Below are positions 7,284 through 23,979 of a DNA stretch of 64,000 nt, piece by piece. The stretch is from Anaerolineae bacterium (GTDB lineage: Bacteria; Chloroflexota; Anaerolineae; DRVO01), in NCBI GenBank assembly GCA_013178015.1, contig JABLXR010000030.1:51238-115237 (forward strand). Direction: 5' to 3'. The translations under genes and the position numbers were made by a program. The first letter of the stretch is position 1; each line of letters opens with the position of its first letter. The notes under the pieces were generated by a model that saw nothing but the letters and a program-made list of their open reading frames with translations, was not told the DNA's origin and ran no database searches.

Positions 7284-7521
7284 TCGTGGGGCGACAGGCG
7301 TTACCGGTTGCTTGCCGCATCGAGTACGGCCGCATGGGCGGGAACATAGGCAAGAATAGCATCTCCACGTCTTTCTGTCATCGATCTACTGCGCCACGGG
7401 GATCAGGTCTCTGTCACCCTTGTGTCACCTCTGCACCATCACACTTGCGGCCGGTAATGGAGTAAGATGGCGCTGTCGGCTCTCCGCTGGTCTCGTGCCT
7501 CTGCCGATTGAGGAGGGAAAG

Positions 7522-8952
7522 ATGAGCAAGGAAGGAAAGGTCTCGCGGCGTTCGTTCGTCCTCGGAGGGTCTAGGCTCGTGGGTGCCGCAGGCGCAATGG
7601 CGGCGCTCTCCGCCTGTGCCGCTACGCCGCAGGTGGTGGAGAAGGTAGTCAAGGAGACCGTGGAGGTCGAGAAGGTCGTCAAGGAAACGGTGGTGGTCGA
7701 GGCCACAACAGCCCCGCGATCGGCTGTAGTCCAGATTCTCATGCCGGAGTTTGGCGAGTACTACGATCAGATCCTGGTGGATACGAGCGACTGGTTCAGG
7801 GAGGATCACCCCGAGGTGACTTTCGAATGGTCATTCGCGCAGCAACACCAGGAGAAGCTGCTGACTCAGATCGCCAGCGGGTTGGCACCCGACATAACGT
7901 ACGTCAACTACATCAACGGTGTCAGCATAGCGTACCGCGGCGTGCTGCTGCCCATGGACGAGTGGTTTGCCGCCGCAGGGCTCAGCACCGATGACTTCCT
8001 CTATGGTGTGATGCACTCCTACATCTGGCGGGGCAGGGCCTATGCTATGCCCATCACTTACGATGCCATGGGCTTCTACTGGAACAAAAATGTCTATGAA
8101 GAGGTAGGGCTGGATCCAGAGCAGCCACCCAGGACCATCGCTGAGCTTGAGGCGCACTCCGACAAGATTCTCTTGAAGGACGACGCTGGCAACATCCAGC
8201 GAATCGGCTACAGCCCCAGCTCGAGCACTTTCGTTCTGTTCGCCTTCATGCGGGGCGGGCAGTTCTACGACGCGGAGAACGACCTCGTCACTGCCGATGA
8301 TCCGCCCAATGTCGAGGACCTGGAGTGGGAGGTAGCTCAAGTCGAGAAGCTGGACGTGGATCGGATGAGTTCGTTCTGGTCGGCAGCTCCTGGCTACTCA
8401 TCTCCAGGGAACCCCTTCACCGTGAATACCCAGGGCCTGGTCTATGGCGGTTGGTGGAACGCTGACTTCTACGAGAAGGTAGAGGGGCTCCGGTATGGGT
8501 TCACCAATGTGCCTTCGCTCACAGGAGATCCCGCAGAGCAGGAGAAGCTGTTCCAGCCATCCTGGGCCGTGGCGGTGCCGCAAGGGGCCAAGGAGCCAGA
8601 ATGGGCCTGGCGGTACATCAAGTACTTCACCGTCGACAACGGGGTGGAGTGCGGCCTGCACGCCGAGCAGTCGTGCTGCTACCTCCCCATCGTGGAGGAG
8701 TGGATAGACCGCTGGGTCGAGGAGAAGATGGCGGGCCAGATCAAGGAGTATGGCAAGGAGTTCTTCACCAATGCCATGCTCTCGGCGCGCTGGTGGCCGG
8801 CCATGCCTGTGGCGGCTATGTACAACACCGAGGTCTCGCGCGCCTACGACTTCGCTATCCACGGCCAGGGGACACCGGCGGAGGTATTGGCCAAGACGAG
8901 GGAGACGGTGCAGGCAGAGCTCGACGGCGTGTTGGCGGCGCTGGGCGGCTAG
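7522..8952 (+). CDS. ABC transporter extracellular solute-binding protein (carbohydrate/CUT1-like) with Tat-type signal
   Basis: AGGAGGG Shine-Dalgarno before ATG 7522. RRSFVLGGS twin-arginine signal. Duplicated lipobox-proximal linker (VVEKVVKETVEVEKVVKETVVVE). Family-1 SBP features. First gene of a long + strand cluster. Confidence 0.85.
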   Translation: MSKEGKVSRRSFVLGGSRLVGAAGAMAALSACAATPQVVEKVVKETVEVEKVVKETVVVEATTAPRSAVVQILMPEFGEYYDQILVDTSDWFREDHPEVTFEWSFAQQHQEKLLTQIASGLAPDITYVNYINGVSIAYRGVLLPMDEWFAAAGLSTDDFLYGVMHSYIWRGRAYAMPITYDAMGFYWNKNVYEEVGLDPEQPPRTIAELEAHSDKILLKDDAGNIQRIGYSPSSSTFVLFAFMRGGQFYDAENDLVTADDPPNVEDLEWEVAQVEKLDVDRMSSFWSAAPGYSSPGNPFTVNTQGLVYGGWWNADFYEKVEGLRYGFTNVPSLTGDPAEQEKLFQPSWAVAVPQGAKEPEWAWRYIKYFTVDNGVECGLHAEQSCCYLPIVEEWIDRWVEEKMAGQIKEYGKEFFTNAMLSARWWPAMPVAAMYNTEVSRAYDFAIHGQGTPAEVLAKTRETVQAELDGVLAALGG

Positions 8953-9180
8953 AGCCCAGGCCAGCGCGCCAGTGTCGTTCCAAGAACGGGTAACCATGCC
9001 TGACCCAGAGCCACTCCAACGGCGGGGATGGGTCCCGCCTTACAGAGAGAAGCCGCTTCACTCTGCTGGCGGACCCCCGTCCAGCAGAGCAGCCGACAGG
9101 CGACCGCCGCTACGGTAGCAGGGCCGTCCCCGGAGGATTGGTCCGATCCTCTGGGGACGGCGGGACCTGAGGAGATAGCC

Positions 9181-10551
9181 TTGACGAGCCAGGATTGGGA
9201 CAGCGAGGAACTCAAGCGAGACGCTCTCCGATACATCCTGCCCAACTTTGCCGACAACGTGGAACTGGGCAAAGAACGTCCCTACATCTTTGTCCGGGGC
9301 GAAGGCTGCTACGTCTACGACATAGACGGCAACCGGTATCTGGACACCTTTGCTTCGCTCCTAACGACCATATCGGGCCACAACCGGCCCGAGGTGGCTC
9401 GAGCGGTGCAGGAGCAAATGAGCCAGCTGGAGTTCTTCCCCAACTACGTTGACGGGTTCACGGTTCCGGCGATCAGGTTGGCCAAGAAGCTGGCGGAGAT
9501 AGCGCCGGGGGACCTCTCGGTGACGTTCTTCGTCAACGACGGATCGGAGGCGTGCGAGACGGCCATCAAGTTGGCCAAGCAGTACTTCTGGGAGAAAGGT
9601 GAGCGGAGCCGGTACAAGATCGTGGCCCGGCGCTACTGCTACCATGGCGCGACCTATGGGGGGCTTTCGGCCACCGGGCTGCCCTGGTTCCGGGAGCCCT
9701 TCCACCCACTCACGCCAGGCTTCGTCCACGTGATGCCCCCATACTGCTATCGCTGCGAGCTGGGTCTGGAGCCTTCTTCCTGCGGCATCGCCTGTCTGCG
9801 TCAAACCGAGGAGGTCATCCGCTGGGAGGGCCCCAAGTCGGTGGCGGCGGTGATAGTAGACCCCATCGCGGGATCGAACACAGGCTATCCGGTACCGCCC
9901 GACGGCTACTTGCAGGGTCTGCGCGAGTTGTGCGACCGGTACGGCATTCTGCTCATCTTCGACGAGGTCCAGACGGGGTTCGGCAAGACGGGGAGAATGT
10001 TCGGCTGCGAGCATTGGGGTGTCGCTCCTGACATCATGGCCATTGCCAAGGGGTTCTCGGGTGGCTACCTTCCCCTGGGGGCGACCCTACTCACTCCTAG
10101 GATAGCAGAGGCTTTCAGCAAGCCGGGCTCAGAATTCAGGCACGGGCACACCTATGCCGGGCACCCCACGGCCTGCGCTGCTGCCCTGGCGAACATCGAG
10201 ATCATCGAGCGAGAAGACCTGGTGGCGCGCGCCGCTCGGATGGGCGATTACCTGAGAAGCCGGCTGGAAGACCTCTACCGCTATCCGGTGGTGGGAGACG
10301 TGCGGGGCATTGGGTTGCTGCTGGCAGTCGAACTGGTGGCCGACAGGGTGAAGAGGACCCCGATCGAGCCCTCAATGGCAGTGGGCAGCTGGATCCGGAA
10401 CCGCTGCTACGAGTTGGGTATCATCCTGCGCAACAACGGCGATATCCTGGTACTGGCACCATCGCTCATCCTTACCAAGGAGCAAGCGGACGAGACGGTG
10501 GATACACTGCACCGGGTGATTCCTGAGGCGATTGATAGGTTCGGGCTGTGA
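9181..10551 (+). CDS. Class-III pyridoxal-phosphate aminotransferase (omega-transaminase family)
   Basis: Conserved DEVQTGFGKTGRMFGCEHWGVAPDIMAIAKGFSGGYLPLGA (PLP-Lys region) and YHGATYGG motifs. Probable TTG start at 9181 (GAGGAG upstream); the ORF is open from 9028. Confidence 0.85.
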   Translation: MTSQDWDSEELKRDALRYILPNFADNVELGKERPYIFVRGEGCYVYDIDGNRYLDTFASLLTTISGHNRPEVARAVQEQMSQLEFFPNYVDGFTVPAIRLAKKLAEIAPGDLSVTFFVNDGSEACETAIKLAKQYFWEKGERSRYKIVARRYCYHGATYGGLSATGLPWFREPFHPLTPGFVHVMPPYCYRCELGLEPSSCGIACLRQTEEVIRWEGPKSVAAVIVDPIAGSNTGYPVPPDGYLQGLRELCDRYGILLIFDEVQTGFGKTGRMFGCEHWGVAPDIMAIAKGFSGGYLPLGATLLTPRIAEAFSKPGSEFRHGHTYAGHPTACAAALANIEIIEREDLVARAARMGDYLRSRLEDLYRYPVVGDVRGIGLLLAVELVADRVKRTPIEPSMAVGSWIRNRCYELGIILRNNGDILVLAPSLILTKEQADETVDTLHRVIPEAIDRFGL

Positions 10552-12524: not shown

Positions 12525-12674
12525 CCACATAGCCACGGAAGACGCAGAGACTCAGCGCAAAGGAGCCGTGACTCGCCGGAGGGAGGGGGCCCGAGGAATC
12601 AGGGGACGGACAGTGTACCGTGGTCTGCCCCTCTTTGCTGCCTCCCTCTATGGCTCATTCCCCAGGAGGTGGCA

Positions 12675-13463
12675 ATGGCGTCCGTAAGCATGAAAGACGT
12701 AGGTTGGGTATGGGAAGGCCAGGGCATGGACCCGGGCGTCCCTCCCTCGGTGTTCGGCGTGGGCGAAGGAGCGGAGTTCTTCGGTCTGCGCCGGGCGATC
12801 TACATCTTCCACCCCAACGACGACCTCGGGCTGGGGAAACTCAGCCACCTGGACGAAGTCGCGTGCGACATCTCCAAGTGGAAGTTCGAAGAGACGAGTC
12901 GGGGAAGCTGGAAGAACTACATCGACTCCAGACCAGACGTGGTCCGGGCCGAGGCCGAGAACCTGAGCCGGCTGTCCCTCAAGTATCGCAACGTCACCGG
13001 CGGCTTCCACGACGATATGTGGGGCCTGGTCAAGCGAGAGGGCTACACCCCGCAGCAGTACGCGGACATCCACGCCGCCCTGCGCAGCGCCAACCCCGAC
13101 CTCAAGCTGTGGGTGGTGGTCTACACCCACGAGCTAGATCCGGCCAACTGGCAGCCCTTCCTTCCCTACATAGATGTCGTCAACCTGTGGGTGTGGAACG
13201 CGAAGGAGCTGCCGGGCTTGGAGGATGCCGTCAGGCGGTGCCGGGCGATCTTCCCGGGCAGGCCTCTGAACGTGGGCTGCTACCTGCGCGACTACCCCAC
13301 GGCTGCGCCCGTGCCTATGGACCTGCTCAAGCTGCAGTGGGAGTACGTCCGTCGCGGCCTCGATGGGGGCGAGATAGACGGCTTTTCCATCCTCGCGACG
13401 GTGCTGATAGACGGGCAGCAGGAGCAGGCCGAGTGGGTGCGCAGATTCATCGCTGCGCACTAG
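12675..13463 (+). CDS. Hypothetical protein (possible TIM-barrel glycosidase-like fold, unassigned)
   Basis: AGGAGGTGG Shine-Dalgarno before the ATG at 12675 (the ORF is open from GTG 12669). Alternating hydrophobic strand motifs (VVVYTHELDP, IDVVNLWVW, NVGCYL) suggest a beta/alpha barrel. No confident family assignment. Confidence 0.55.
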   Translation: MASVSMKDVGWVWEGQGMDPGVPPSVFGVGEGAEFFGLRRAIYIFHPNDDLGLGKLSHLDEVACDISKWKFEETSRGSWKNYIDSRPDVVRAEAENLSRLSLKYRNVTGGFHDDMWGLVKREGYTPQQYADIHAALRSANPDLKLWVVVYTHELDPANWQPFLPYIDVVNLWVWNAKELPGLEDAVRRCRAIFPGRPLNVGCYLRDYPTAAPVPMDLLKLQWEYVRRGLDGGEIDGFSILATVLIDGQQEQAEWVRRFIAAH

Positions 13464-13541: not shown

Positions 13542-14738
13542 GTGACTAGACTGAAGATCGCTGTCGTGGGCGCTGGAGTGGGGAGAGCGCAGAGTTGGAT
13601 GTCCACGCTGCGGAAGCTGTCCCAGCTTAGCGACCTCTACCAGTTCACGGCCTTGTGTGAGGCCATCCCGAAGCGGGCCAGGGAGAACGCCGAGCGCTGG
13701 GGGGTGAAAGGCTTCACCAACCTGCTGGCGATGCTGGACGAGGCGAAGCCCGACGTAGTCCTCAATTGCGCCCCCTCGGACAGCAACTCGATGGTGCTCG
13801 GCCTCTGTGCCCCGCGAGGGGTGAACCTGATCACCGAGATACCCATCGCGCCCACGCTTGGCATCGGTGACTGGATGATGGCCATGGCGAAGGAGCACGG
13901 CATCAAGCTCGAGATCACCGAGCAGGTCTACCTGTGGGCCCGGGAGCAGCTGAAGCGCAAGATACTCGACTCCGGAATCATCGGCGAGATCACGCACGCC
14001 CGGCTCTGGTACGTGAACAAGGCGGACTACCATGGGCTCAATGGCGTGCGTATGCTGATCGGCAGCGAGGCCAGGCGGGTGTTGGGCTATACCGGCAGGG
14101 CTCCGGTGCCCCACTTCGTCGGCTACGAGGGCGACCTGGTGACCGAGGATGCCTGGGACGCGGCCATCATTGAGTTCGACAGCGGAGTCGTCTGTCTCTT
14201 CGAAGACCCGCCCAGGGGGCGGCTTACCGCCCGCTGGGACATCGAGGGGAGTGAAGGCCAGATAGTGGGCAGCGACCTCTACATCGGTCCTCTGGAGGGT
14301 GCGTCTCAGCACTACCCGTTCCGACACGAGTACACTGAAGCCAACGGCACCAGGATTCTTGACCATGTGCGCGTGGACACCTCTCCGCCCATCGTGTTCG
14401 AGAATCCATACAAGGAGTACCAGGCAGCCGATGACGACGAAGTGGCACGCATGCAGCTTCTGGTCGGCTTCCACCGGGCGGTCACCGAAGATACCGAGCC
14501 CGAGTACGGGCCGCAGAACGCGCGCAAGGATCTAGAGCTGCTGTTCGCTCTGCGGGAGAGCGCGCGCCTCGGCAACGCTTGGGTCGAGCTGCCGCTGCGC
14601 GGACCGACGGAACTGGAGAAGCGGCTCGAAGAGGAGTTCCTTCGCCTGTACGGTCACTCGCCATTCGACGCCCAGGCGCTGGCCGGCGTGCGCATCCCCC
14701 GCGGTGGAGTGCGTTGGCGCGTGGCCGGTTGGGACTAG
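13542..14738 (+). CDS. Gfo/Idh/MocA-family NAD(P)-dependent oxidoreductase
   Basis: N-terminal Rossmann motif KIAVVGAGVGRAQ. Family-typical length and a C-terminal alpha/beta domain. GTG start with CAGGAGG Shine-Dalgarno. Confidence 0.85.
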   Translation: MTRLKIAVVGAGVGRAQSWMSTLRKLSQLSDLYQFTALCEAIPKRARENAERWGVKGFTNLLAMLDEAKPDVVLNCAPSDSNSMVLGLCAPRGVNLITEIPIAPTLGIGDWMMAMAKEHGIKLEITEQVYLWAREQLKRKILDSGIIGEITHARLWYVNKADYHGLNGVRMLIGSEARRVLGYTGRAPVPHFVGYEGDLVTEDAWDAAIIEFDSGVVCLFEDPPRGRLTARWDIEGSEGQIVGSDLYIGPLEGASQHYPFRHEYTEANGTRILDHVRVDTSPPIVFENPYKEYQAADDDEVARMQLLVGFHRAVTEDTEPEYGPQNARKDLELLFALRESARLGNAWVELPLRGPTELEKRLEEEFLRLYGHSPFDAQALAGVRIPRGGVRWRVAGWD

Positions 14739-14766
14739 CCAACCACTCACTACGTAGGAGGGCATT

Positions 14767-17532
14767 GTGTCGGAGAATGGGCCCATCGCCAGGAGTGACA
14801 GGCTCTGGTGGCATGATTGCCAGGAAGGACGGAGCGATGCCGTCCTGCCCCCTTGGACACCCCTGGCGGTCTCGCTAGAGGATGGCACAATGACCGTTGA
14901 GGCATGGGGCCGCTGCTATGCCTTCAGCGGGCTGCCCTTCCCCAAGGGCGTCGTTTCCACCGAAAGCGACATCCTCGCCGGGCCGGTACGGCTCGTCACA
15001 GTGGTGGAGGGCAGGGAGCAGTCGTGGTCGGGCCGACGGCTGGAGATCGCCCAGCAGAGCGAGGCCAGGGTGACCCTTCGATCGGCCGCCGAGGCGGCTG
15101 ACCTGGAGCTCGAGGCGCAGGTGAGCGTGGAGTACGACGGCATGGTCCGGGTGGATTGGCAGGCCATCCCCAGGCGTTCGCTCCGCCTCGACCGGCTCGT
15201 CCTCGAGATTCCGTTCAAGCCAGAGCACGCCGGCTACCTGTACTTCTTCCCTGGCCGGTGGGCCAGCACCTATAACGCCATGGCTCTGCCCCCAGAGGGC
15301 AAGGCCATGCCCTTCCAGCCACTCGTCTGGCTGGGGAGCGAGGACCGCGGCCTGGCTTGGTTCTGCGAGAGCGACCACAACTGGCTGAGCGACGAGTCCG
15401 ATGCCGTGACCGAGATCGAGCGCCGGGACGACCGCGTCATCCTCCGGCTGAACATAGTCAAACGGCCGGTGGAACTCGTTCCTGGAGCCCCCAAGCTGGA
15501 CCGGCAGCGGGCGCTCACCCCCACCGAGCCGGTGGGCGAGTTGGCCTACACGTTCGGCTTCCAGGCTACGCCGGTGAAGCAGCCGGACAAGGATGCCTGG
15601 GACTACCGCCTGACGCACAACGGCGACTACGGCATCGAGTCCATCCCGGCCGACTTCGCCACCCTCACCTACAGCGCCTGGGGCAACGTGACCTTGGACC
15701 GGGGTAGCCTGGAGCTGTGGCTGCAGCCGGTCTTCGGCTTCACGTATGACTATGGACAGAGGCGGCCCATCGTCAGCCTCGACCTCCCGGGGGAGGCCGG
15801 TCTAGCGTGGTTCTGGAACCAGAACGACCGCAAGGTGCACTTCCAAGTGCGCGAGCAGGGTCGGGTGGTGGCGGACCTCTCCGGACCGGCCGATTGGCGG
15901 CCGGGCCAGTGGCACCATCTGGCCACCACCTGGGGCGAGGCCCTCAGGCTCTACGTGGACGGGGACCTGGTCTCAGAGACGAAGAGGCGGGGGACGGTGG
16001 AGGCTCCCCTCGCCAACGCCTTGCTGGTGTTCGGTGGCTCGCTGTGCGGGTTTACTCTGGATGAAATCCGCACCTCTTGGATCGCTCGCTCCCCCGAGGA
16101 GATCGAAGCCGCTGCCGGCGGTGCGTTCCCGTACGACAGTGAGGACGTGCACGTCCTTTTGCTGGATCACCTGGACAACACCTATGACCCCGGGAACATT
16201 GAGCACCTGGACAGCTATGGCACCTTCACCCGGCCTGCGATCTTCGGGCGTCGGTTCGGGGGGCAGGCAGGCAGGGACGCCGTCCGCTACGTCAACGGAT
16301 ACACCGGCATGGGCTTGGTGGATGGCGCGGGCCGCTTCGTGCCGGGCAAGTTCGGGCAGGGCCTGCAGCTAGGGGGCTGGCAGGAGCCAGTGCTAGACCG
16401 GCTCGCGCGCGAGGGCGTCAGGGGGGTCTGCTTCCACGAACACTGGACCGACTGGCAATCCTACCCGTGCACGGACAAGTATGCCGCCGAGATGCGCAGC
16501 CTGGTGCAAGGCTGCCACGAGCGGGACATCCAGCTGCTGCTCTACTATGGCTTCGACTTCTCGGCCCTGGCGCCGGAGTTCGAGGCCTACCACGAGGAGT
16601 GCCTGGTGAAGCCGCACCACGGCGGACGCACCTATACCTGCACCCCGGCGCCCTTGCAGCGCACTTTCACCGTCTGCTACCAGAGCGTGTGGCAGGATGC
16701 CATCGTGGCCGGTATCGCCCACATGATGGATGAGTACGACGTGGACGGCGTCTACCTAGACGGCACTGAGTATCCGCACGCCTGCGCCAACCTGGCCCAC
16801 GGCTGCGGGTACGTGCGCGAGGATGGCAGTGTGGCTCAGACGTACCCCATCTTCGCCACCCGGGAGATCATGCGCCGCATCTACACCGTGGTGAAGTCTC
16901 GCAAGCCCGACGGCCAGGTGAACGTGCACAACTCCACCTGCATGACCATCCCCACCATTGCCTGGGCCACCAGCTTGTGGGACGGGGAGCAGTTCGGTCA
17001 CATAGAACCTGGGCCGCACGCGCTGACGGTACTGCCGCTGGACGCCTTCCGCACCGAGTTCATGGGGCACCAGTGGGGCGTGCCGGGGGAGTTCCTCTGC
17101 TACGAACGGCCCTTTACCTACCAGCAGTCGCTCTCGGTGACGCTCCTGCATGATGTCCCAGTGCGGCCCATAGGCGCCGGCCCTAACCTCGACGTGGCGG
17201 GCAAGCTCTGGCGCACCATGGATGCTTTCGGGCGCAAGGAGGCGGAGTGGCTGCCCTACTGGCGCAACCAGGGGTTCGTTCAGGTAAGCCCTGAGGGTGC
17301 CCTGGCCAGCCTGTACCGCCACCCGGAGAACGGCGTCCTGATGGTGCTCTCCAACCTGGGACGCAGGTCAGCGCCGGTCACAGCGCGATTGAACCTGGAG
17401 CAGCTTGGGCTGGGAGTGGGCGCGATTGCCACGGACGCGATGAGCGGCGAGGTGCTCCCCTTGCGCGAGGGGGCCTTGCGGGTGGACTTGCCTTCTATGG
17501 GCTGGGTGCTGGCCTGGCTGAAGCAGCGGTGA
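14767..17532 (+). CDS. Large (921 aa) multidomain protein: N-terminal beta-rich domain, central LamG/concanavalin-A-like domain, C-terminal putative glycoside-hydrolase-like catalytic region
   Basis: The LamG-like pattern WHHLATTWGEALRLYVDGDLVSE...ALLVFGGS is recognisable. The C-terminal half is rich in aromatic and acidic residues, typical of carbohydrate-active enzymes (GVYLDGTEYPHACANLAHGCGY). GTG start with AGGAGGG Shine-Dalgarno. No signal peptide is evident. Confidence 0.7.
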   Translation: MSENGPIARSDRLWWHDCQEGRSDAVLPPWTPLAVSLEDGTMTVEAWGRCYAFSGLPFPKGVVSTESDILAGPVRLVTVVEGREQSWSGRRLEIAQQSEARVTLRSAAEAADLELEAQVSVEYDGMVRVDWQAIPRRSLRLDRLVLEIPFKPEHAGYLYFFPGRWASTYNAMALPPEGKAMPFQPLVWLGSEDRGLAWFCESDHNWLSDESDAVTEIERRDDRVILRLNIVKRPVELVPGAPKLDRQRALTPTEPVGELAYTFGFQATPVKQPDKDAWDYRLTHNGDYGIESIPADFATLTYSAWGNVTLDRGSLELWLQPVFGFTYDYGQRRPIVSLDLPGEAGLAWFWNQNDRKVHFQVREQGRVVADLSGPADWRPGQWHHLATTWGEALRLYVDGDLVSETKRRGTVEAPLANALLVFGGSLCGFTLDEIRTSWIARSPEEIEAAAGGAFPYDSEDVHVLLLDHLDNTYDPGNIEHLDSYGTFTRPAIFGRRFGGQAGRDAVRYVNGYTGMGLVDGAGRFVPGKFGQGLQLGGWQEPVLDRLAREGVRGVCFHEHWTDWQSYPCTDKYAAEMRSLVQGCHERDIQLLLYYGFDFSALAPEFEAYHEECLVKPHHGGRTYTCTPAPLQRTFTVCYQSVWQDAIVAGIAHMMDEYDVDGVYLDGTEYPHACANLAHGCGYVREDGSVAQTYPIFATREIMRRIYTVVKSRKPDGQVNVHNSTCMTIPTIAWATSLWDGEQFGHIEPGPHALTVLPLDAFRTEFMGHQWGVPGEFLCYERPFTYQQSLSVTLLHDVPVRPIGAGPNLDVAGKLWRTMDAFGRKEAEWLPYWRNQGFVQVSPEGALASLYRHPENGVLMVLSNLGRRSAPVTARLNLEQLGLGVGAIATDAMSGEVLPLREGALRVDLPSMGWVLAWLKQR

Positions 17533-17572
17533 GAGTAGCGGTGCTGCTCATCCGGACGCGAGAGGAGATCGC

Positions 17573-19060
17573 ATGGGAGAAGTGCCTGACGAGGTGTACG
17601 AGCTACTGGCGATGACCGGCTCCAGAGCGACGGGGGCCTTCTGTGTCCTGGACCAGTCTGACGTGGACCGCCTGGCAGAGGCGGCGCTCACCATTCTCGA
17701 CCGGCTGGGCATGACCTGTCAGAGCCCCACTCTGCTCAAGGCTCTGGAAAGCTGGGGGGCGCGGGTGGATCTGGCGGCTCAGCAGGTCACCTTCCCCCGC
17801 TCCCTGGTAGAGGATTTCGTCCGTAGGACGCGAGCAGAGGCTCAACCCGACAATGCCGCCCCGGCGTTCTTCCGGGCGCCGCCCATGCCCTGGACCTTCC
17901 ATCCCCTGGCGGTCTACTTCTATGACGACGCCGGGCAGCAGAAGCGGGCTGGCAATCGAGATGACTTCATAGCCATGACCAAACTCGGCGACGTCCTGCA
18001 CCCCGAGCGCGGCGTGGGCCATTCCCTGCTGCTCTCCGACGTTCCCTCCGAGGTGGAGCCGCTCGAGGCAGCCCTCCTGCTGTGCGAGTGGGGGCACCGG
18101 CCGCGCGGGGTCTACGTCCAGGATGTGCGCCAGATCCCCTACCTGCAGGAGATGGAGGACATCGCCGGCATCAGCGACCCATACTGGCACTGGATGGCGA
18201 ACGTGAGCTTCTCCACCCCCTTGCGGCTGGGGCGCGACATCGCCGAACGGTTCGTGCGCATGGTGAGAAGCGGGCACTACCCGGCCCAGGTCTACAACTT
18301 CGCTGTCAGCGGGGTCAATATGCCGGCCACCGTGGCTGGGTGTGCTGCTCTGGCCGGGGCAGAGCTGCTTGCCCTGTGGATGGCGGCCCGAGCGCTGAGC
18401 CCGGATATCTCTCTGGAGGGAGGGCTGGCCTGGATCGCCACGGCGGACATGCGCACCGGGGACATCAGCTACTCCGGATACGACGCCACCATACGCAGCC
18501 TGGCCACCTGTGAGTTCCTCCGTCGCTGGACGGGCGTGACCGTCTCGCCGGGCGGCGGTGAGTACAACCCTTCCAGCATTCCCGGTACCTACACCGCTCT
18601 GGAGAAGGCGTACCGGGCCATGACCGTGGCTGCCTTCACCGGCGTGCACCCGGCGGTGGGGCTGGGGCACGTCGAGGCCGGACTCAGCCTGAGCCCCGTC
18701 CAACTCCTGCTGGACCGCGAGGTCACTGCCGGACTGGGCCTGCTAGAGCATCCGCCGGTGGACGAGGACACCTTGGGTCTGGACACCATCCTCTCGGTGG
18801 GCCATGGCGAGCACGGCACCTATCTGGAGACGGAACACACCCTGCGTCACTTCCGCTCCGCTCTGTGGCAGCCACGCCTCTTCGACCGGGGCGGGTGGGC
18901 TGGCATCGAGTCGGAGCAGGCAGTGCTGGCTCGGGCCCAGGATCGCGTCCGGGAACTGCTCGCCGAATATCGGAAGCCCGAGTTCGACCCGGACCGCTTG
19001 GAGAAGATGCGGGCTGTGGTGGCCCGGGCACGGCGCGAGATGCAGGGGGATCGTGGATAG
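17573..19060 (+). CDS. MttB-superfamily methyltransferase (trimethylamine methyltransferase family, non-pyrrolysine member)
   Basis: Length (~495 aa) and N-terminal pattern (LSDSDVDRLAEAALTILDRLGM...LLKALESWGA) match the MttB/MtgB family. The ORF is continuous with no in-frame amber codon. A paralog lies at 58313-59722 (alignable throughout). Confidence 0.8.
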   Translation: MGEVPDEVYELLAMTGSRATGAFCVLDQSDVDRLAEAALTILDRLGMTCQSPTLLKALESWGARVDLAAQQVTFPRSLVEDFVRRTRAEAQPDNAAPAFFRAPPMPWTFHPLAVYFYDDAGQQKRAGNRDDFIAMTKLGDVLHPERGVGHSLLLSDVPSEVEPLEAALLLCEWGHRPRGVYVQDVRQIPYLQEMEDIAGISDPYWHWMANVSFSTPLRLGRDIAERFVRMVRSGHYPAQVYNFAVSGVNMPATVAGCAALAGAELLALWMAARALSPDISLEGGLAWIATADMRTGDISYSGYDATIRSLATCEFLRRWTGVTVSPGGGEYNPSSIPGTYTALEKAYRAMTVAAFTGVHPAVGLGHVEAGLSLSPVQLLLDREVTAGLGLLEHPPVDEDTLGLDTILSVGHGEHGTYLETEHTLRHFRSALWQPRLFDRGGWAGIESEQAVLARAQDRVRELLAEYRKPEFDPDRLEKMRAVVARARREMQGDRG

Positions 19061-19152
19061 GGCGTGATGGCGAGCGGTGAGTCACTGGCAAAGAGTGCTG
19101 GCTTACGGACCGCTATCCACTCACCACTCACCACTGTCTAGGAGAGAGCAAC

Positions 19153-20136
19153 GTGGGCATGAGCGATGATGGCGCACGACTGGTTGGCATGTTGCGCACG
19201 ATGTACCGCATTCGCTTCTTCGAGGAGCGGGTGAAGGAGCTGTTCGGGCAGAACCTAATCTGGGGCGGAGTGCACCTTTACATCGGCCAGGAGGCGGTGG
19301 CTACGGGTGCGTGCGCCGCCCTGCGCCGCGATGATTACCTGGTGAGCACGCACCGAGGTCATGGCCACTGCCTGGCCAAAGGGGGTGACATCCGACGCAC
19401 TATGGCCGAGCTCATGGGGCGAGACACCGGCTATTGCAGGGGCCGCGGCGGCTCCATGCACCTCTTCGACCCAGAGATCGGACTGCTGGGCGGCAACGGC
19501 ATCGTGGGCGCGGGACTTCCCATTGCTCTAGGGGCCGCCCTCTCCGCCCAGTACCGAGGCAGTGACCAGGTCTGTGCATGCTTCTTCAGCGACGGGGCGT
19601 CCAATCAGGGCACCTTCCACGAGTCGCTCAACCTGGCTGCGCTGTGGAAGCTGCCTTTGGTATACATCTGCGAGAACAACCTCTATGCCGCCACCACCCC
19701 GGCCTCCAAGACGCTGCCCTTGCCGGACATCTACGTCCGGGCAGCCGCTTACGGGATCCCCGGAGTGTCAGTGGACGGCAACGACGTAGAAGCGGTGTAC
19801 CAGGCGGTCAGCCAAGCGGTGACGCGGGCCCGGGGTGGGGAGGGGCCATCACTGGTGGAGTGCAAGACCTACCGCATCGAGGGGCACTGCATGGTGCTGG
19901 ATTGCCACCGCGATCCCGAGGAGCTGGCAGCCTGGAAGGAAAGGGATCCCATCCGAATGTTCGAGGGCCGTCTGCTGGAGATGGGCGTCATAGCCACTGA
20001 TGACATCGCTGAGCTGCGCTCGCAGGCGGAGGCAGACGTCCGGGAGGCAGTCGAGTACGCCCAGGCCAGTCCCTTCCCTTCGGCGGATGACCTGGGATTG
20101 GCGGATCTTCCTGCCGCCGTGGTCGCCGGGTTCTAG
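19153..20136 (+). CDS. Thiamine-diphosphate-dependent 2-oxoacid/acetoin dehydrogenase E1 component, alpha subunit
   Basis: TPP-binding region GGNGIVGAGLPIALGAALSAQYRG...CFFSDGASNQGTFHESLNLAALWKLPLVYICENNLYA. The phospho-loop-like YRIEGH is present. Confidence 0.9.
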   Translation: MGMSDDGARLVGMLRTMYRIRFFEERVKELFGQNLIWGGVHLYIGQEAVATGACAALRRDDYLVSTHRGHGHCLAKGGDIRRTMAELMGRDTGYCRGRGGSMHLFDPEIGLLGGNGIVGAGLPIALGAALSAQYRGSDQVCACFFSDGASNQGTFHESLNLAALWKLPLVYICENNLYAATTPASKTLPLPDIYVRAAAYGIPGVSVDGNDVEAVYQAVSQAVTRARGGEGPSLVECKTYRIEGHCMVLDCHRDPEELAAWKERDPIRMFEGRLLEMGVIATDDIAELRSQAEADVREAVEYAQASPFPSADDLGLADLPAAVVAGF

Positions 20137-20192
20137 CGGCCTGGTGCCTAGCTGGGGCCGGATACTTCGCTCATGGATAGAGGTGTGACCAA

Positions 20193-21170
20193 GTGCGCGA
20201 GTTGATGTACGTCCAGGCTCTCAATGAGGCTCTCGTCGAGGAGATGGGGCGTGACGCCTCGGTGTTTCTCATAGGAGAGGACATCGGCTACTCCGGCGGA
20301 GGTGTCTTCCGGGTCACCACCGGGCTGGCGGACAGGTTTGGCGACGGGCGAGTCAGGGAGACGCCCATATCGGAGTCGGCCATCATTGGCACGGCCGTGG
20401 GGGCCGCAGCAACCGGCCTCAGGCCCGTAGCCGAGATCATGTATATGGACTTCATTACCTGCGGCATGGACCAGGTGGCGAACCAGGCTGCCAAGATTAG
20501 CTTCATGTCCGGGGGACAGGTGAGGCTACCGCTGGTGATCAGAACACCCTCGGGGATGGGAACGCGGGAGGCGGCCCAGCACAGCCAGAGCCTCGAGGCC
20601 TGGTTCGTGCACACTCCTGGCCTGAAGGTGGTCATGCCGGCGACGGTGTATGACGCCAAGGGGCTGCTCAAGTCTAGCATCCGCGACGATGGCCCGGTGC
20701 TCTTCATCGAGAACCGTATGCTTTACTATGAGAAGGAGAGCGTGCCGGAGGGCGAGTGGGTGGTGCCGCTGGGCCAGGCTGCCATCAGGCGGGAGGGCGA
20801 TCAGCTCACCGTCGTGGCCACCGCCTACGCTCTGCACAAGGCTCTGAAGGCGGCGGAGATGGTGGCGGGCGAAGTCAGCGTAGAGGTCATAGATCCCCGC
20901 ACTCTAGTGCCCCTGGACATGGAAGCCATCACCCGCTCTCTAGAGAAGACGGGTCGCCTGCTGGTGGTACACGAAGCCCCCGTTCGGGGAGGCTTTGGGG
21001 CTGAGGTGGTGCGCCGGGCGATGGAGAGCGCGTTCGAGTACCTGGACTGCGCTCCCCGGGTGCTGGGTGGCGCCGCCACGCCCATGCCCTACAGCCCGCC
21101 GCTGGAGGATGCCTGCGTGCCGCAGGTGGAGGACATCGTGGCGGCCATGCGGGCCATGGTTGGCAGGTAG
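20193..21170 (+). CDS. 2-oxoacid/acetoin dehydrogenase E1 component, beta subunit (transketolase-like)
   Basis: FLIGEDIGYSGGGVFRVTTGLADRFG...RVRETPISESAIIGTAVGAAATGLRP is typical of E1 beta. It follows E1 alpha after a 56-nt gap. No E2 or E3 in the window. Confidence 0.9.
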   Translation: MRELMYVQALNEALVEEMGRDASVFLIGEDIGYSGGGVFRVTTGLADRFGDGRVRETPISESAIIGTAVGAAATGLRPVAEIMYMDFITCGMDQVANQAAKISFMSGGQVRLPLVIRTPSGMGTREAAQHSQSLEAWFVHTPGLKVVMPATVYDAKGLLKSSIRDDGPVLFIENRMLYYEKESVPEGEWVVPLGQAAIRREGDQLTVVATAYALHKALKAAEMVAGEVSVEVIDPRTLVPLDMEAITRSLEKTGRLLVVHEAPVRGGFGAEVVRRAMESAFEYLDCAPRVLGGAATPMPYSPPLEDACVPQVEDIVAAMRAMVGR

Positions 21171-21257
21171 TGGTTAGGGGGTGGCGGCTAGTTTGGTGGA
21201 AGACGCCGCTCGCTCTCCACTGCTCATCAACCGCTATCCACTCCTCAGGAGGGTTAC

Positions 21258-22334
21258 GTGACGCCACGAGAGAGGTTGCTGGCCGCCATCAACCGCAGGA
21301 AGCCGGACAGGCTGCCGAAGGCCATATCGTTCACCGAGCCAGCGCTGAGGGTATTCCGGGAGAAGACCGGGGCGACCGATCCTCAGGAGTACTTCGGGGT
21401 GGAGACCAGGTGGGTGAGCTTCGGCCCAACTAAGGTCAAGACAGACTGGACGCGGTTCCTGCCTGATCTGCCTGAGGGCGCCGAGTTCAGCGAGTGGGGG
21501 GTCGGATACCTCAAACGTCCCGACACCCACTACTTCCGATACGCGGGGCCCATGCGCAGCTTCACCACAGTGGAGCAGATCCGCTCCTATCCCTATCCGG
21601 ACATCACCGCCGACTACCGCCATGCCGACCTGGAAGAACGGGTGGCAGCCCTGCAGGACCGGGGCTACGCCGTGGCCGGAAGCGTGACCCCCGAGGGTGG
21701 TGCCTTCTTCGAGGCCGCCTGGGTACTACGCGACTTGGATCAGCTTCTGGTTGATTTCGCCGCCAACCCCGAGATGGCCGACGCGTTGCTGGACGAGGTG
21801 TCGGAGCGCAGCGCCTTCATGTCCCGGCGGTTTGCCGAAGCCGGCGTGGACCTCATCTACACTGGTGACGACGTCGGCACGGAGCGGGCCATGCTCATCA
21901 GCCCGGCCACCTGGCGCCGGTTCATCAAGCCCCGGTTCGCCCGGGTCATCGCGGCGGCGCGGGAGGTGCGGCCCGACATCCCCGTGTTCTACCACTGCGA
22001 CGGCTACTGCGAGCCCATCATCCCGGAGCTGATCGAGATCGGGGTGACCATCCTCAACCCGGTGCAGCCGGAGTGCATGGACCCCATCAAGCTCAAGCGG
22101 CGGTACGGCGACCAACTGGCGTTCTGGGGCACCATCGGCACCCAGACTACCATGCCTTTCGGCACCCCCGATGAGGTGCGGGCGGCGGTGAAGCGCATGT
22201 TCGAGACGGTGGGCGAGGGAGGGGGGTTGGTCATCGCCCCCACGCAGGTGATCGAGCCCGACGTCCCGTGGGAGAACATCGTCGCCTTCGCCGAAGCCGT
22301 GGCGGAGTGCGTTTATACGGTCGCTGACGCTTAG
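21258..22334 (+). CDS. Uroporphyrinogen-decarboxylase (URO-D) family protein, MtaA/CmuA-like methyltransferase-type
   Basis: N-terminal ERLLAAINRRKPDRLP and overall URO-D-like length (~358 aa). The genomic context (MttB-family neighbour) fits the methylcobamide-type methyltransferase subfamily rather than HemE. GTG start with AGGAGGG Shine-Dalgarno. Confidence 0.7.
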   Translation: MTPRERLLAAINRRKPDRLPKAISFTEPALRVFREKTGATDPQEYFGVETRWVSFGPTKVKTDWTRFLPDLPEGAEFSEWGVGYLKRPDTHYFRYAGPMRSFTTVEQIRSYPYPDITADYRHADLEERVAALQDRGYAVAGSVTPEGGAFFEAAWVLRDLDQLLVDFAANPEMADALLDEVSERSAFMSRRFAEAGVDLIYTGDDVGTERAMLISPATWRRFIKPRFARVIAAAREVRPDIPVFYHCDGYCEPIIPELIEIGVTILNPVQPECMDPIKLKRRYGDQLAFWGTIGTQTTMPFGTPDEVRAAVKRMFETVGEGGGLVIAPTQVIEPDVPWENIVAFAEAVAECVYTVADA

Positions 22335-22341
22335 GCCAGGT

Positions 22342-23979
22342 GTGAGACCCCTGCCGTTCTTCGACATCAATGGAGCTATCGGCGAGCCTGTGTACTCCGC
22401 CGCCACCGGGCAGTTCGCCGGCTACCGCAGCGCCTCCGACTTGTTGGCGGAGATGGACCGCTGTGGGGTAGAGCGGTCGCTGGTCTGCCACTGGGAGGCG
22501 CTCAAGGTGCACCCCGCCTCGGGCAACGCACGCCTCATCGAGGAGGCGGGCGGGCACGAGCGACTCTTACCTTGCTGGGTGGTGCTGCCCCACTACACCG
22601 GCGAGATGTCCCGGCCGGCGGACCTGCTGAGCCGCATGCGCACCCTCGGCGTGAGGGCGGTGCGGCTGGTGCCGCACCTGTTCGGCTTCAGCCTGGACGA
22701 CTGGTGTTCGGGAGAGCTCCTCGCCGTCTTGGAGAAGGAGCACATCCTCACCATAGTGGAGGCGACGCCGGCCGAACTGGCATTCTTGTGCGAACGATTC
22801 CCTCGTCTGCCGCTGGCGGGCACGGACACCAACCTGCGCCAGATGTACCCCCTGCTGGCTCGATACTCCAACCTCTACCTGAGCCTCGAGGGCGCCTCTC
22901 ACCCGGAGATGGTGGAGGATGTGTGCCGGCGCTTCGGGCCCGGGCGTCTGCTCTTCGGTAGCCAGCGTCAAGCGCCCGTGTTTCCCACTGGAGACGTGGT
23001 GTATGAGCCGGGGGCATGGCGCTTGGGGCCTTCGTTGGCCACGGTGGCGTACGCCCGGGTATCCCGGAAGGCAAAGGAAGCCCTCGCCGGCAATACCCTG
23101 GCGACGCTCCTGGGGCTGCCCGCGGGTCGAGGCATGGCGCCCCAGGGCGAGGGAGAGATCATCGCTGCCGGGGCTGCTGGAGTCCCGGTGCCGGCCCGGG
23201 TGCTTGACGCCCACTTCCACCTGGGGCCGTGGGCCTACGGCCACCAGCCGGGAACTGACGTTGACGCCGCCCTGGCCATGATGGACGCAGCCGGGGTAGA
23301 GGTGGCCTGCGTCAGTTCAGCGTCGGCCGTGCAGGGCGGCGATCACTACCGCGGAAACCGGGAAGTGGCCCTGGTGTGCCGGGACCATCCCGACCGGTTC
23401 GTGGGCTTCGGCGTCATCAACCCGCATTTCCCGGACACCAGGGACGAGATTCGACGCTGCACAGAGCTCTACGGCTTCCGGGGACTGAAAGTGCACCCGC
23501 GCACTCACCAATGCAGCCTGGCCGATCCGAAGTACGTGCCTGTGTGGGAGGCGGCGGAGGACCCGGGGGTGCTGGTGCAGGCCCACACCGGCGAGCGCCA
23601 GACCGGCGCCAGCCCGAGGGCCTTCGAGGAGATCGCCAGCCGCTACCCTCGAGGCGTCTTTCACTTGGTACACTCCGGGGACAACCTGGAAGGGCTGCGC
23701 GTGTGTCTCGACCTCGCTTCCAAGCACCCGAACCTGTATCTCGGCACGTCGGACGTAGCCTTCATGTATGAGGGCATGCTGGAACACGCCGTTCGGCGAC
23801 TGGGAGCTGACCGCATAGTGTTCGAGTCCGACTGTGCCACCATTGGCCTCAATCACTCCCTCGGGATCGTGCTGTTCTCGGCTCTGAGCGACCGCGACAA
23901 GGCTCTAATCCTCGGCGGCAACCTGGCCCGACTTCTTGGTCGCGGATGCCCGGACGCGCCGGCGGGCCGGAGCGCATAG
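22342..23979 (+). CDS. Tandem-duplicated amidohydrolase-2 (PF04909-like TIM-barrel metal-dependent hydrolase) fusion protein
   Basis: The second half carries the HxH metal motif (VLDAHFHLGP) and ...VHPRTHQ...QAHTGE. The first half is alignable to the second (CHWEALKVHPASG / RGLKVHPRTH). Total 545 aa, about twice the single-domain size. Confidence 0.7.
   Translation: MRPLPFFDINGAIGEPVYSAATGQFAGYRSASDLLAEMDRCGVERSLVCHWEALKVHPASGNARLIEEAGGHERLLPCWVVLPHYTGEMSRPADLLSRMRTLGVRAVRLVPHLFGFSLDDWCSGELLAVLEKEHILTIVEATPAELAFLCERFPRLPLAGTDTNLRQMYPLLARYSNLYLSLEGASHPEMVEDVCRRFGPGRLLFGSQRQAPVFPTGDVVYEPGAWRLGPSLATVAYARVSRKAKEALAGNTLATLLGLPAGRGMAPQGEGEIIAAGAAGVPVPARVLDAHFHLGPWAYGHQPGTDVDAALAMMDAAGVEVACVSSASAVQGGDHYRGNREVALVCRDHPDRFVGFGVINPHFPDTRDEIRRCTELYGFRGLKVHPRTHQCSLADPKYVPVWEAAEDPGVLVQAHTGERQTGASPRAFEEIASRYPRGVFHLVHSGDNLEGLRVCLDLASKHPNLYLGTSDVAFMYEGMLEHAVRRLGADRIVFESDCATIGLNHSLGIVLFSALSDRDKALILGGNLARLLGRGCPDAPAGRSA

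Follow-up and report, generated by a model that had tools for sequence, protein, structure and literature searches.

Two pyrrolysine-free MttB-superfamily paralogs from an Anaerolineae genome belong to an uncharacterised clade found in glycan-degradation loci

Results

Two MttB-like genes and their surroundings

The window, which is the whole 64-kb stretch of DNA that was analysed, contains two MttB-like genes, copy 1 and copy 2 (Table 1). A first-pass annotation had placed copy 1 in a catabolic operon, a description that is upheld and extended by synteny. The GH123_N protein occupies the same position upstream of the MttB-like gene in two other loci, L001 and L002, and the E1 alpha gene directly follows the MttB-like gene in several phyla. 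The aminotransferase encoded upstream has no NCBIfam equivalog above cut-off. TAG is the common stop codon in the copy 1 operon. Neither pyl genes nor tRNA-Pyl were found in the 64-kb window.

Table 1. Genes of the copy 1 operon and of the copy 2 locus (positions within the window)
Feature	Position	Strand	Evidence and remarks
ABC solute-binding protein, carbohydrate type	7420..8952	+	SBP_bac_1; weak UgpB / sugar-binding-protein matches
Class-III (omega-type) aminotransferase	9028..10551	+	Pfam Aminotran_3, 356 bits
Two ABC permease genes	10675-11625 and 11598-12524	+	BPD_transp_1 in both; syntenic in L001 and L002
Conserved ~262-aa protein, predicted small glycoside-hydrolase-like (beta/alpha)8 barrel	12669..13463	+	No Pfam model; structure predicted
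Gfo/Idh/MocA oxidoreductase	13542..14738	+	Pfam GFO_IDH_MocA; family recurs beside clade members
921-aa GH123_N + Laminin_G_3 + GHL-like protein	14767..17532	+	Pfam domains; ends 40 bp upstream of copy 1
MttB-like copy 1	17573..19060	+	495 aa; ATG start; non-Pyl; subclade 3
TPP-dependent E1 alpha, PDH/acetoin-dehydrogenase type	19153..20136	+	Pfam E1_dh, 280 bits; TIGR03182, 371 bits (cut-off 394)
E1 beta subunit	20193..21170	+	Transket_pyr, Transketolase_C; NF006667, 353 bits; syntenic
URO-D/MtaA-family protein	21258..22334	+	Pfam PF01208, 90 bits; NCBIfam MtaA/CmuA, 69 bits (cut-off 235)
Amidohydro_2 protein with unassigned N-terminal extension	22342..23979	+	Pfam, 124 bits over C-terminal half; recurs in module
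389-aa protein, divergent from copy 2	56823..57992	-	Pfam and PDB sequence searches negative
MttB-like copy 2	58313..59722	+	469 aa; non-Pyl; subclade 1; monocistronic, divergent from upstream gene

Copy 2 was assigned a start at 58313 rather than at the upstream ATG at 58256 because database protein P0082, which is 99.8% identical, is 469 aa long. The protein divergent from copy 2 had been labeled an Ogl/TolB-like beta-propeller. The label is unsupported, as no Pfam match was found at E ≤ 1e-3 and no PDB sequence match at E ≤ 1. Close homologs of this protein lie beside subclade-1 MttB-like genes, in the same divergent position, in the Anaerolineae MAGs L030 and L051. A promoter and terminator scan around copy 2 yielded nothing informative.

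Family and fold

Paralogy of the two genes, proposed in the first-pass annotation from end-to-end alignment, was confirmed: the products share 49% identity over 468 aligned residues (E 2e-155). Both ORFs had also been read as uninterrupted, and a stop-codon check found no in-frame TAG, TGA or TAA in either. Membership of the MttB family survives HMM search. Pfam PF06253 (MTTB; cut-off 25 bits) matches copies 1 and 2 end to end, with 149.8 and 155.2 bits over profile positions 28-499 and 33-498 of 500. Scores against TIGR02369, which describes the Pyl-dependent trimethylamine methyltransferase, are 122 and 164, respectively, versus a cut-off of 525.

The structure of copy 1 was modeled with AF2 (pLDDT 88.3, pTM 0.86). 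A Foldseek search of the PDB with this model at E ≤ 1e-3 matched only MttB, MtgB and 4yyc, with TM 0.70-0.75. The model superposes on MttB and MtgB, and the predicted fold is a TIM barrel with an N-terminal helical part and a C-terminal extension.

A small clade with a conserved gene module

Copies 1 and 2 belong to a small clade that was found only in MAGs and metagenomes and that splits into two subclades. Its carriers are uncultured Anaerolineae, Armatimonadota, Planctomycetota, Verrucomicrobiota, Kiritimatiellota, Lentisphaerota and Omnitrophota, and the genes lie within glycan-degradation loci. The clade is distinct and uncharacterised within the MttB superfamily, and a literature search for the clade or its module found no description of either. 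The copies are not simple duplicates: they fall in the two subclades and differ in pocket residues and gene neighborhood. That copy 2 is a relocated form of the second in-operon paralog of Anaerolineae MAGs was considered and rejected: identity to proteins P0006 and P0007 is 57-61% for copy 1 but only 45-47% for copy 2, and copy 2 belongs to a different subclade.

In the copy 1 subclade a module recurs in at least six phyla, consisting of a class-III aminotransferase, a Gfo/Idh/MocA oxidoreductase, an Amidohydro_2 protein, the MttB-like protein, E1 alpha and beta, and a URO-D-like protein. The gene order SDR-UROD-UROD-AT3-Amidohydro_2-GFO-MTTB-E1a-E1b is found in Anaerolineae, Desantisbacteria, Omnitrophota, Verrucomicrobiota, Kiritimatiellota, Pirellulales and Lentisphaerota. 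Across the clade the aminotransferase gene (Aminotran_3) always shares the orientation of the MttB-like gene, with a median gap of 224 bp, and URO-D-like genes are the commonest neighbors (32/105 non-redundant loci, 30%). Because the aminotransferase/E1/URO-D neighborhood is conserved across phyla, its association with the MttB-like gene is not accidental. Genes of the copy 2 subclade are mostly solitary, or lie beside GH123-like or URO-D-like genes.

Corrinoid proteins in the window and among relatives

The first-pass annotation reported no B12-binding protein in the window and no corrinoid partner in cis for either copy, which is correct. Pfam scans detected neither PF02310 nor PF02607 among all called genes of the window, and a six-frame HMM scan for the B12-binding domain returned nothing at E ≤ 10. 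The probe for the latter, a MetH B12-domain fragment, picks up MttC, MtaC and MtmC in the PDB. Together with a regex scan, the six-frame HMM scan ruled out that any unassigned ORF of the window hides a corrinoid protein. A candidate partner of the methyltransferase type does lie in cis: the URO-D/MtaA-family gene three genes downstream of copy 1 had been missed, although the annotation suggested searching the rest of the genome for a partner of this kind.

A corrinoid protein is encoded in cis in 3/105 non-redundant loci, both subclades being represented; the 105 loci are those with 3 kb or more of flanking sequence on one side, and the count covers this clade only. It is missing from every complete copy of the multi-phylum module outside the lineage with a pyl cluster. 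In L095, L096, L143 and L172 a protein with B12-binding_2 and B12-binding domains is encoded directly downstream of the clade member, which belongs to subclade 3 and is 47.6-47.9% identical to copy 1. In L044 and L147 the corrinoid protein is one gene further downstream, and the clade members belong to subclade 1 with 52% identity to copy 2. In this clade a missing cis-encoded corrinoid protein is the rule and not a feature of this one genome, and rare linked relatives occur in both subclades, which speaks for a partner supplied in trans and against a loss of corrinoid chemistry.

The copy-1-type MttB-like gene of L096 and L172 lies inside a pyl cluster, with PylS on one side and the corrinoid protein on the other. 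Also present in the cluster are tRNA-Pyl, MtbB with an in-frame TAG, PylB, PylC and PylD. The genes immediately upstream, E1a, E1b, URO-D, SDR and GFO, are those that surround copy 1 as well. L174 has the same module with MtbB and a corrinoid protein, and its MttB-like gene is a decayed remnant. Neither a RamA-type activase nor a pterin-type methyltransferase was identified; a 620-aa ORF upstream of the L147 cluster was considered as a RamA-type activase and rejected, as it is a PabB-PabC-like fusion. An Ace Lake clade, described as an MttB/MtgB homolog with split MetH, was rejected as the same family because its context differs (homocysteine methyltransferase, corrinoid protein and activation domain).

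The URO-D/MtaA-family neighbor

The URO-D/MtaA family is the source of the second methyltransferase in the methylamine systems of methanogens, where MttB works with MtbA. Among solved structures the best match to the URO-D-like protein of the window is MtaA (PDB 4AY7; E 9e-10). The MtaA zinc ligands, His-x-Cys...Cys, are not conserved among 28 URO-D partners: the first Cys is replaced by Ser, Thr or Ala and the second by His, Asn, Glu or Gln. Since an MtaA-type zinc site is not conserved in these partners, a CoM-type thiol acceptor is unsupported. The product of 21258-22334 is a candidate for the second methyltransferase or for some other partner.

Pocket residues and the pyrrolysine position

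Residue roles in the MtgB and MttB pockets were taken from published work (PMC13080624, PMC9842639). In a profile alignment MtgB Y97, part of a 2-residue insertion, and H348 fall in insertions that are missing from the clade. The R312 column is variable (S/P/A); copy 1 has S325 there and copy 2 has Y. MtgB F356 aligns with G370, which is invariant in the clade and corresponds to MttB G372, a corrinoid-contacting residue (PMC13080624, PMC9842639). The clade therefore has neither the basic residues that bind the acid group (MtgB R312 and H348) nor the cation-pi aromatic pair at the positions of Y97 and F356. Judging from conservation, the aromatics Y/W331, W319, Y347 and W269 might stand in for this pair. 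Many Asp, Glu and His residues are invariant in the clade, and acid-base or metal catalysis in an enzyme other than a methyltransferase could equally be conceived from them.

Pyl334 of MttB aligns with Y331. Among 89 sequences, ~98% have Tyr or Trp here, and in 88% the residue before it is Glu. The position of MttB Y364 is Val or Ile in the clade. The corrinoid-linked members of subclade 3 share with copy 1 F109-H110, GEY at 329-331, H359, GH-x-D/E and L371, while L044 and L147, the corrinoid-linked members of subclade 1, share the GGGEY and GQGM-x-E-x-GK motifs with copy 2.

Discussion

Proposed function and its alternatives

With moderate confidence we infer that both copies are corrinoid-dependent demethylases, that they act on a methylamine which is non-acidic and probably linked to a sugar, and that their corrinoid protein is supplied in trans. 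The MttB-like protein would be the substrate-specific first methyltransferase, binding the methylated amine in the cavity of the TIM barrel and passing one methyl group to the Co(I) of a corrinoid protein whose gene must then lie beyond the 64 kb. A cationic methylamine that has neither carboxylate nor phosphate is the probable substrate, and it probably carries a sugar or polyol or is released from one. In the copy 1 pathway the ABC transporter and the GH-like enzymes would deliver the compound, the MttB-like enzyme would demethylate it, and the class-III aminotransferase would then take off the resulting primary amine. The carbon skeleton would pass to the Gfo/Idh/MocA oxidoreductase, the Amidohydro_2 protein and the TPP-dependent E1 alpha/beta. 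The URO-D/MtaA-like protein is a candidate for unloading the methyl-corrinoid. Copy 2, from the sister subclade and with a different pocket, probably has a substrate that is related to that of copy 1 but distinct from it.

The first-pass annotation considered methylamine or betaine as inducing substrates. Neither free methylamines nor glycine betaine are favored; the glycine-betaine-binding residues of MtgB are missing on alignment. Its statement that the substrates of both copies are unassigned holds. What most MttB homologs without pyrrolysine do is acknowledged to be an open question. Six members of the superfamily have an identified substrate, and, trimethylamine aside, each of these substrates is a quaternary amine that bears an acidic group (PMC12155760). 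It is very improbable that the copies are ordinary quaternary-amine methyltransferases of the glycine betaine, proline betaine, carnitine or phosphocholine type, serving osmolyte catabolism with the sugar genes merely nearby. They do share their superfamily with MtgB, MtpB, MtcB, MtyB and MthB and, like these, have no Pyl. However, they are only ~21% identical to MtgB, the positions of H348 and Y97 are deleted, and a variable small residue replaces R312, which is conserved in enzymes with carboxylate substrates and essential in MtgB (PMC13080624). The conserved neighborhood described above also argues against a chance association.

A doubtful but more serious alternative is that the clade has been repurposed, the MttB-fold and URO-D-like barrels acting without a corrinoid on an amino-sugar intermediate of a new catabolic pathway, as an isomerase, lyase, hydrolase or decarboxylase, with the few corrinoid-linked loci coincidental or ancestral. 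Consistent with such a change, only 3% of the loci encode a corrinoid protein in cis although the module is compact and conserved in at least six phyla, and the neighbors are sugar enzymes (GH123-like proteins, GH-like barrels, Gfo/Idh/MocA, split transketolase, ROK, DUF4432 and sulfatases). The many invariant acidic and His residues, the loss of the MtaA zinc ligands from the URO-D partners and the absence of all four glycine-betaine-binding residues of MtgB point the same way. Conversely, corrinoid-linked members of both subclades share their pocket residues with the window copies, and the E1/URO-D/SDR/GFO genes accompany MtbB, the corrinoid protein and pyl genes in L096/L172 and L174. G370 is invariant, matching the corrinoid-contacting G372 of MttB, and a partner in trans has a precedent in Eubacterium limosum, where several MttB homologs share one corrinoid protein, MtqC (PMC12155760). 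O-Demethylation of methylated sugars by a corrinoid-dependent enzyme, acting on O-methyl hexoses or deoxyhexoses freed by the adjacent glycosidases while the aminotransferase serves another step, is improbable. The clade does lie in glycan-degradation loci, where GH-like genes directly precede its members, and most of its lineages are anaerobic or microaerobic. URO-D-family proteins serve as methyl-ether methyltransferases in anaerobic O-demethylases, which fits this alternative, and the invariant His, Asp and Glu could hold a metal that activates the ether oxygen. Nevertheless, the tightest partner is an aminotransferase, in one lineage the gene lies among Pyl-dependent methylamine genes, and all characterised members of the MttB superfamily act on N-methyl groups (PMC12155760, PMC13080624).

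A broader idea, which we offer as speculation and think unlikely, is that MttB-like and URO-D-like barrels without a dedicated corrinoid protein form the core of an undescribed cross-phylum catabolism of amino or methylamino sugars in uncultured glycan degraders. The reaction would be either a new one that is not methyl transfer, or a Pyl-free demethylation of protonated secondary or tertiary methylamines by the Glu-Tyr pair at the Pyl position.

If the copies are demethylases as proposed, a clade without acid-binding residues that is tied to aminotransferase, E1 and URO-D genes points to a new class of substrate for corrinoid-dependent demethylation and to an unrecognised route for methylated nitrogen in polysaccharide degraders. 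In one lineage a clade member fills the MttB slot of a bacterial pyl cluster. L096/L172 and L044/L147, which have their own corrinoid protein, are ready systems for testing the proposal with cob(I)alamin assays.

Comparison with known systems

MtgB, the glycine betaine:corrinoid methyltransferase of Desulfitobacterium hafniense (PDB 2QNE, 9YCE), is likewise a non-Pyl TIM barrel of the MttB superfamily, of similar length and extended at its C terminus. Superposition of the copy 1 model on it gives TM 0.72-0.75, and the clade profile aligns with it end to end. In contrast to this likeness in fold, sequence identity is low and the pocket residues Y97, R312, H348 and F356 are deleted or replaced in the clade. 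The window copies also lack an adjacent corrinoid protein or pterin methyltransferase and lie in sugar-catabolic loci.

The best structural match to the copy 1 model is MttB, the Pyl-dependent trimethylamine methyltransferase of Methanosarcina barkeri (PDB 7XCL, 7XCN; E 5e-22, TM 0.74). Its GAGMLELG around G372 resembles the clade motif G-x-G-[HM]-[LV]-[ED]-x-G. The window copies differ from it in having no in-frame UAG, and the clade has a Tyr or Trp after Glu at the Pyl334 position and Val or Ile in place of Y364.

The phosphocholine methyltransferase MthB and the shared MtqC/MtqA system of Eubacterium limosum offer further parallels, namely a non-Pyl homolog whose substrate is prepared by accessory enzymes and a corrinoid protein common to several MttB homologs (PMC12155760). 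The partners differ, being aminotransferase, E1 alpha/beta and URO-D in the clade rather than a kinase and a pterin methyltransferase, and the characterised non-Pyl substrates are acidic whereas the clade is without acid-binding residues. Finally, the URO-D-like protein of the window resembles the methylcobamide:CoM methyltransferases MtaA/MtbA of the URO-D family, matching both the MtaA structure and the MtaA/CmuA model, but it falls well below the cut-off of that model (69 vs 235 bits) and the zinc ligands are not conserved among the URO-D partners.

Intact MttB-like genes of a small clade

Both MttB-like open reading frames (copies 1 and 2; table) were found exactly where the first-pass annotation had placed them, and its description of them as uninterrupted paralogs lacking an in-frame UAG held up. 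Both frames are free of internal stops of every type, and the products share 49% identity across 468 residues (E 2e-155). For copy 2, an ATG further upstream at 58256 is possible; the start at 58313 is backed by P0082, a database protein of 469 aa that is 99.8% identical. The family assignment survived an HMM search, with Pfam MTTB (PF06253; cut-off 25 bits) matching the two copies at 150 and 155 bits over the whole profile. TIGR02369, the equivalog for pyrrolysine-containing (Pyl) MttB, gave just 122 and 164 bits against a cut-off of 525. The fold agrees: the only solved structures on which an AlphaFold2 model of copy 1 (pLDDT 88.3, pTM 0.86) can be superposed are those of MttB, MtgB and a Sinorhizobium homolog, 4YYC (TM 0.70-0.75, identity 18-22%). 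By HMM and structure, the copies belong to the MttB superfamily as divergent members of the family. They lie outside MttB proper because they are without Pyl. Since eight of the 11 operon genes (7420-22334), copy 1 among them, terminate in TAG, as does copy 2, this codon serves as a normal stop here. The 64-kb window contains no tRNA genes detectable by ARAGORN and no homologs of MtbB, PylS, PylB or PylC.

The close homologs (44-93% identity) were found in metagenomes and in MAGs labeled Anaerolineae, Planctomycetota, Armatimonadota, Omnitrophota, Lentisphaerota, Latescibacterota and Poribacteria. Searching 185,579 species-representative genomes yielded 88 relatives, 80 of which were kept (L010-L089); all 80 are MAGs, with no cultured isolate among them. 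A few matches of this search carry archaeal labels (Brockarchaeota, Nitrososphaerota). In a library of 1.84 billion representative proteins clustered at 50% identity, 2,426 match at E<=1e-3 and just 87 at E<=1e-30, with about six at least 39% identical. These counts make the clade a minor branch within a large superfamily. Three main subclades emerged when 89 members were grouped by average-linkage clustering, with copy 1 in subclade 3 and copy 2 in subclade 1.

MttB-like genes and other features of the window
Feature	Coordinates	Strand	Product	Remark
Ser/Thr kinase	960-2006	-		near histidine kinase
FHA + Trans_reg_C regulator	2250-3077	+		near histidine kinase
Response-regulator protein	3749-5122	+		near histidine kinase
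Hybrid histidine kinase	5079-7385	-		directly upstream of operon, divergent
Sugar-type ABC binding protein	7420-8952
Class-III aminotransferase	9028-10551
Two permeases	10675-12524
262-aa unknown	12669-13463		262 aa
Gfo/Idh/MocA	13542-14738
GH123_N/LamG/GHL-like	14767-17532		921 aa
MttB-like, copy 1	17573-19060	+	495 aa
E1 alpha	19153-20136
E1 beta	20193-21170
URO-D-like	21258-22334
Amidohydro_2	22342-23979	+
389-aa protein	56823-57992	-	389 aa	divergent from copy 2
MttB-like, copy 2	58313-59722	+	469 aa	monocistronic

Gene neighborhoods

Copy 1 sits in a co-directional string of genes extending from 7420 to 23979, which may be controlled by the adjacent histidine kinase and the regulators and kinase near it. 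The Amidohydro_2 protein is extended at its N terminus by about 300 aa that match no family, an architecture also seen at a Desantisbacteria locus (L011, 11437-12720). Two Anaerolineae MAG contigs are syntenic with the whole of 7420-22334 and carry two MttB-like paralogs inside the operon. The second of these (P0006, P0007) are copy-1-like, which rules out copy 2 as a relocated paralog of that type.

Across subclades 2 and 3, the order SDR, URO-D, URO-D, class-III aminotransferase (Aminotran_3), Amidohydro_2, Gfo/Idh/MocA, MttB-like, E1 alpha, E1 beta recurs in Verrucomicrobiota, Kiritimatiellota, Pirellulales and Lentisphaerota, with variants in Omnitrophota and Desantisbacteria; some of these loci add a split transketolase. 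The minimal unit, in Planctomycetota, is a Gfo/Idh/MocA or GH109-like gene, MttB-like, Aminotran_3. Genome and metagenome loci were pooled, and 175 clade genes collapsed into 141 groups at 90% identity, 105 of which are flanked by 3 kb or more on one side. Within 6 kb, the neighbors are URO-D-like (32/105, 30%), Gfo/Idh/MocA (29/105, 28%), Aminotran_3 (17/105, 16%), E1 beta (13/105, 12%), GH123_cat-like and the 262-aa unknown (each 12/105, 11%) and a corrinoid protein (3/105, 3%, a frequency uncalibrated by a control set). Aminotran_3 is invariably co-directional with the MttB-like gene, with a median gap of 224 bp. Aminotran_3 and E1 alpha are never near subclade 1 genes, which are often solitary or adjoin GH123-like, URO-D-like, DUF1559 or sulfatase genes. 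Close homologs (~790-810 bits) of the 389-aa protein beside copy 2 occupy the same divergent position beside subclade 1 MttB-like genes in two Anaerolineae MAGs (L030, L051), which also puts the source organism of the window close to the Anaerolineae; the protein itself matches no Pfam family and no PDB sequence.

Corrinoid partners

Genes were called across all 64 kb and scanned with Pfam, revealing no B12-binding (PF02310) or B12-binding_2 (PF02607) domain among them. A six-frame HMM scan of the window, using a profile of MetH B12 domains, produced no match at E<=10; a MetH fragment of the set behind this profile retrieves MttC (2.8e-11), MtaC and MtmC in the PDB. The first-pass annotation was thus correct that a B12-binding protein is absent. 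Its broader statement that there is no corrinoid partner in cis stands for the corrinoid protein, and had overlooked a URO-D-family gene three genes downstream of copy 1 (Pfam 90 bits). In methanogen systems, the second methyltransferase (MtbA/MtaA) comes from the URO-D family. The gene product's closest solved relative is MtaA (PDB 4AY7), and it scores 69 bits against NCBIfam MtaA/CmuA, under the cut-off of 235. URO-D partners of the clade are without the MtaA zinc ligands: in most, the His is kept, the first Cys is Ser, Thr or Ala, and the second is His, Asn, Glu or Gln. These partners may represent a URO-D subfamily of their own, with a different acceptor or function. URO-D-like genes are often tandem or duplicated around the MttB-like gene (L027, L032, L013, L044/L147).

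At five loci, forming three groups at 90% identity, a canonical B12-binding_2 plus B12-binding protein of 210-224 aa adjoins the MttB-like gene. In L044 and L147 (subclade 1; 52% identity to copy 2) the order is URO-D, MttB-like, AP_endonuc_2, corrinoid protein, URO-D. In L095, L096, L143 and L172 (subclade 3; 47.6-47.9% identity to copy 1) the corrinoid protein is directly downstream. Both window subclades therefore have members in classical arrangements of substrate methyltransferase (MT1) and corrinoid protein. The L172 cluster reads E1 alpha, E1 beta, URO-D, SDR, Gfo/Idh/MocA (opposite strand), tRNA-Pyl, MtbB, PylS core, MttB-like, corrinoid protein, PylB, PylC, PylD. Its MtbB has an in-frame TAG at codon 354, and its MttB-like gene, between PylS core and corrinoid protein, encodes 488 aa with no stop. 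ARAGORN found tRNA-Pyl (anticodon CTA) in L096, a JGI contig overlapping L172. The pyl cluster spans 5508-11194 in L096 and 1-15639 in L172 and also occurs in L095 and L143; the sources are lake and other metagenomes. A non-Pyl MttB-like gene fills the slot expected for Pyl-MttB in this bacterial pyl cluster, whose MtbB contains Pyl and which is flanked by sugar-type E1 alpha/beta, URO-D, SDR and Gfo/Idh/MocA genes. In L174, from a related lineage, E1 alpha, E1 beta, URO-D, SDR, DUF4432 and Gfo/Idh/MocA adjoin MtbB, PylS, corrinoid protein and PylBC. The spacer between PylS and corrinoid protein (9387-10001) holds only fragments matching MttB-like residues 2-61 and 207-232, so the MttB-like gene has decayed to a pseudogene in a cluster that retains MtbB and the E1/URO-D module. 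The E1, URO-D, SDR and Gfo/Idh/MocA genes flanking copy 1 travel with methylamine-type corrinoid genes elsewhere.

Substrate pocket

The clade profile was aligned to solved structures, with residue roles from PMC13080624 and PMC9842639. In MtgB, Y97 and F356 make cation-pi contacts and H348 and R312 bind the carboxylate; R312 is essential and is conserved in MtcB, MtpB, MthB and MtyB (PMC13080624, PMC9842639). Alignment and pocket inspection, as the first-pass annotation had proposed, showed all four absent or replaced. Y97 and H348 lie within insertions absent from the clade, R312 corresponds to a small residue that varies (S325 in copy 1), and F356 aligns with an invariant G370 that matches the corrinoid-contacting G372 of MttB. 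As aligned, the copies fail the defining substrate-binding features of characterized non-Pyl enzymes. MttB Pyl334 aligns with Y331, a column occupied by Tyr or Trp in roughly 98% of the 89 sequences and preceded by Glu in 88%. Residues at least 90% conserved include D118, R125, D131, H150, E162, E172, Q187, Y190, E193, T253, E264, W269, R273, D292, D304, W319, E344, K345, Y347 and Q377. The pocket loops read F-H at 109-110, H at 366 and L at 371 in subclades 2 and 3, and G-T, M and K in subclade 1. Corrinoid-linked members have the same diagnostic residues as the window copies. Judged from the alignment, the pocket is acidic and aromatic and contains no basic residues, suggesting a cationic substrate that lacks an acid group.

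Proposed function

What was observed directly is the fold, the intact reading frames, the synteny, the linkage of relatives to corrinoid proteins and the divergent pocket. From these we propose that the MttB-like enzymes would demethylate a methylated amine and pass the methyl group to a Co(I) corrinoid protein whose gene lies elsewhere. The primary amine unmasked in this way would next be removed by the aminotransferase. A sugar-like skeleton would be handled by Gfo/Idh/MocA, E1 alpha/beta and Amidohydro_2, whose family includes sugar lactonases, and the URO-D-like proteins would unload the methyl-corrinoid. The weak points are a corrinoid protein in cis at 3% of loci, the failure to find an activase, and URO-D partners without MtaA zinc ligands. 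The leading alternative, repurposing of the barrel for a corrinoid-independent reaction in amino-sugar catabolism, is one we consider unlikely. We favor methyl transfer that depends on a corrinoid carrier supplied in trans, mainly because both subclades have corrinoid-linked relatives, these share the pocket residues, and the flanking genes co-travel.

Full-text literature searches returned no account of the clade, its module, or a pyl cluster in which a non-Pyl MttB takes the place of MttB. The partners and ecological setting are new, and the substrate class is likely new as well, applied to what is likely familiar chemistry. The in-trans carrier has a precedent in Eubacterium limosum, where one corrinoid protein, MtqC, serves MtpB, MtcB and MtyB (PMC12155760).
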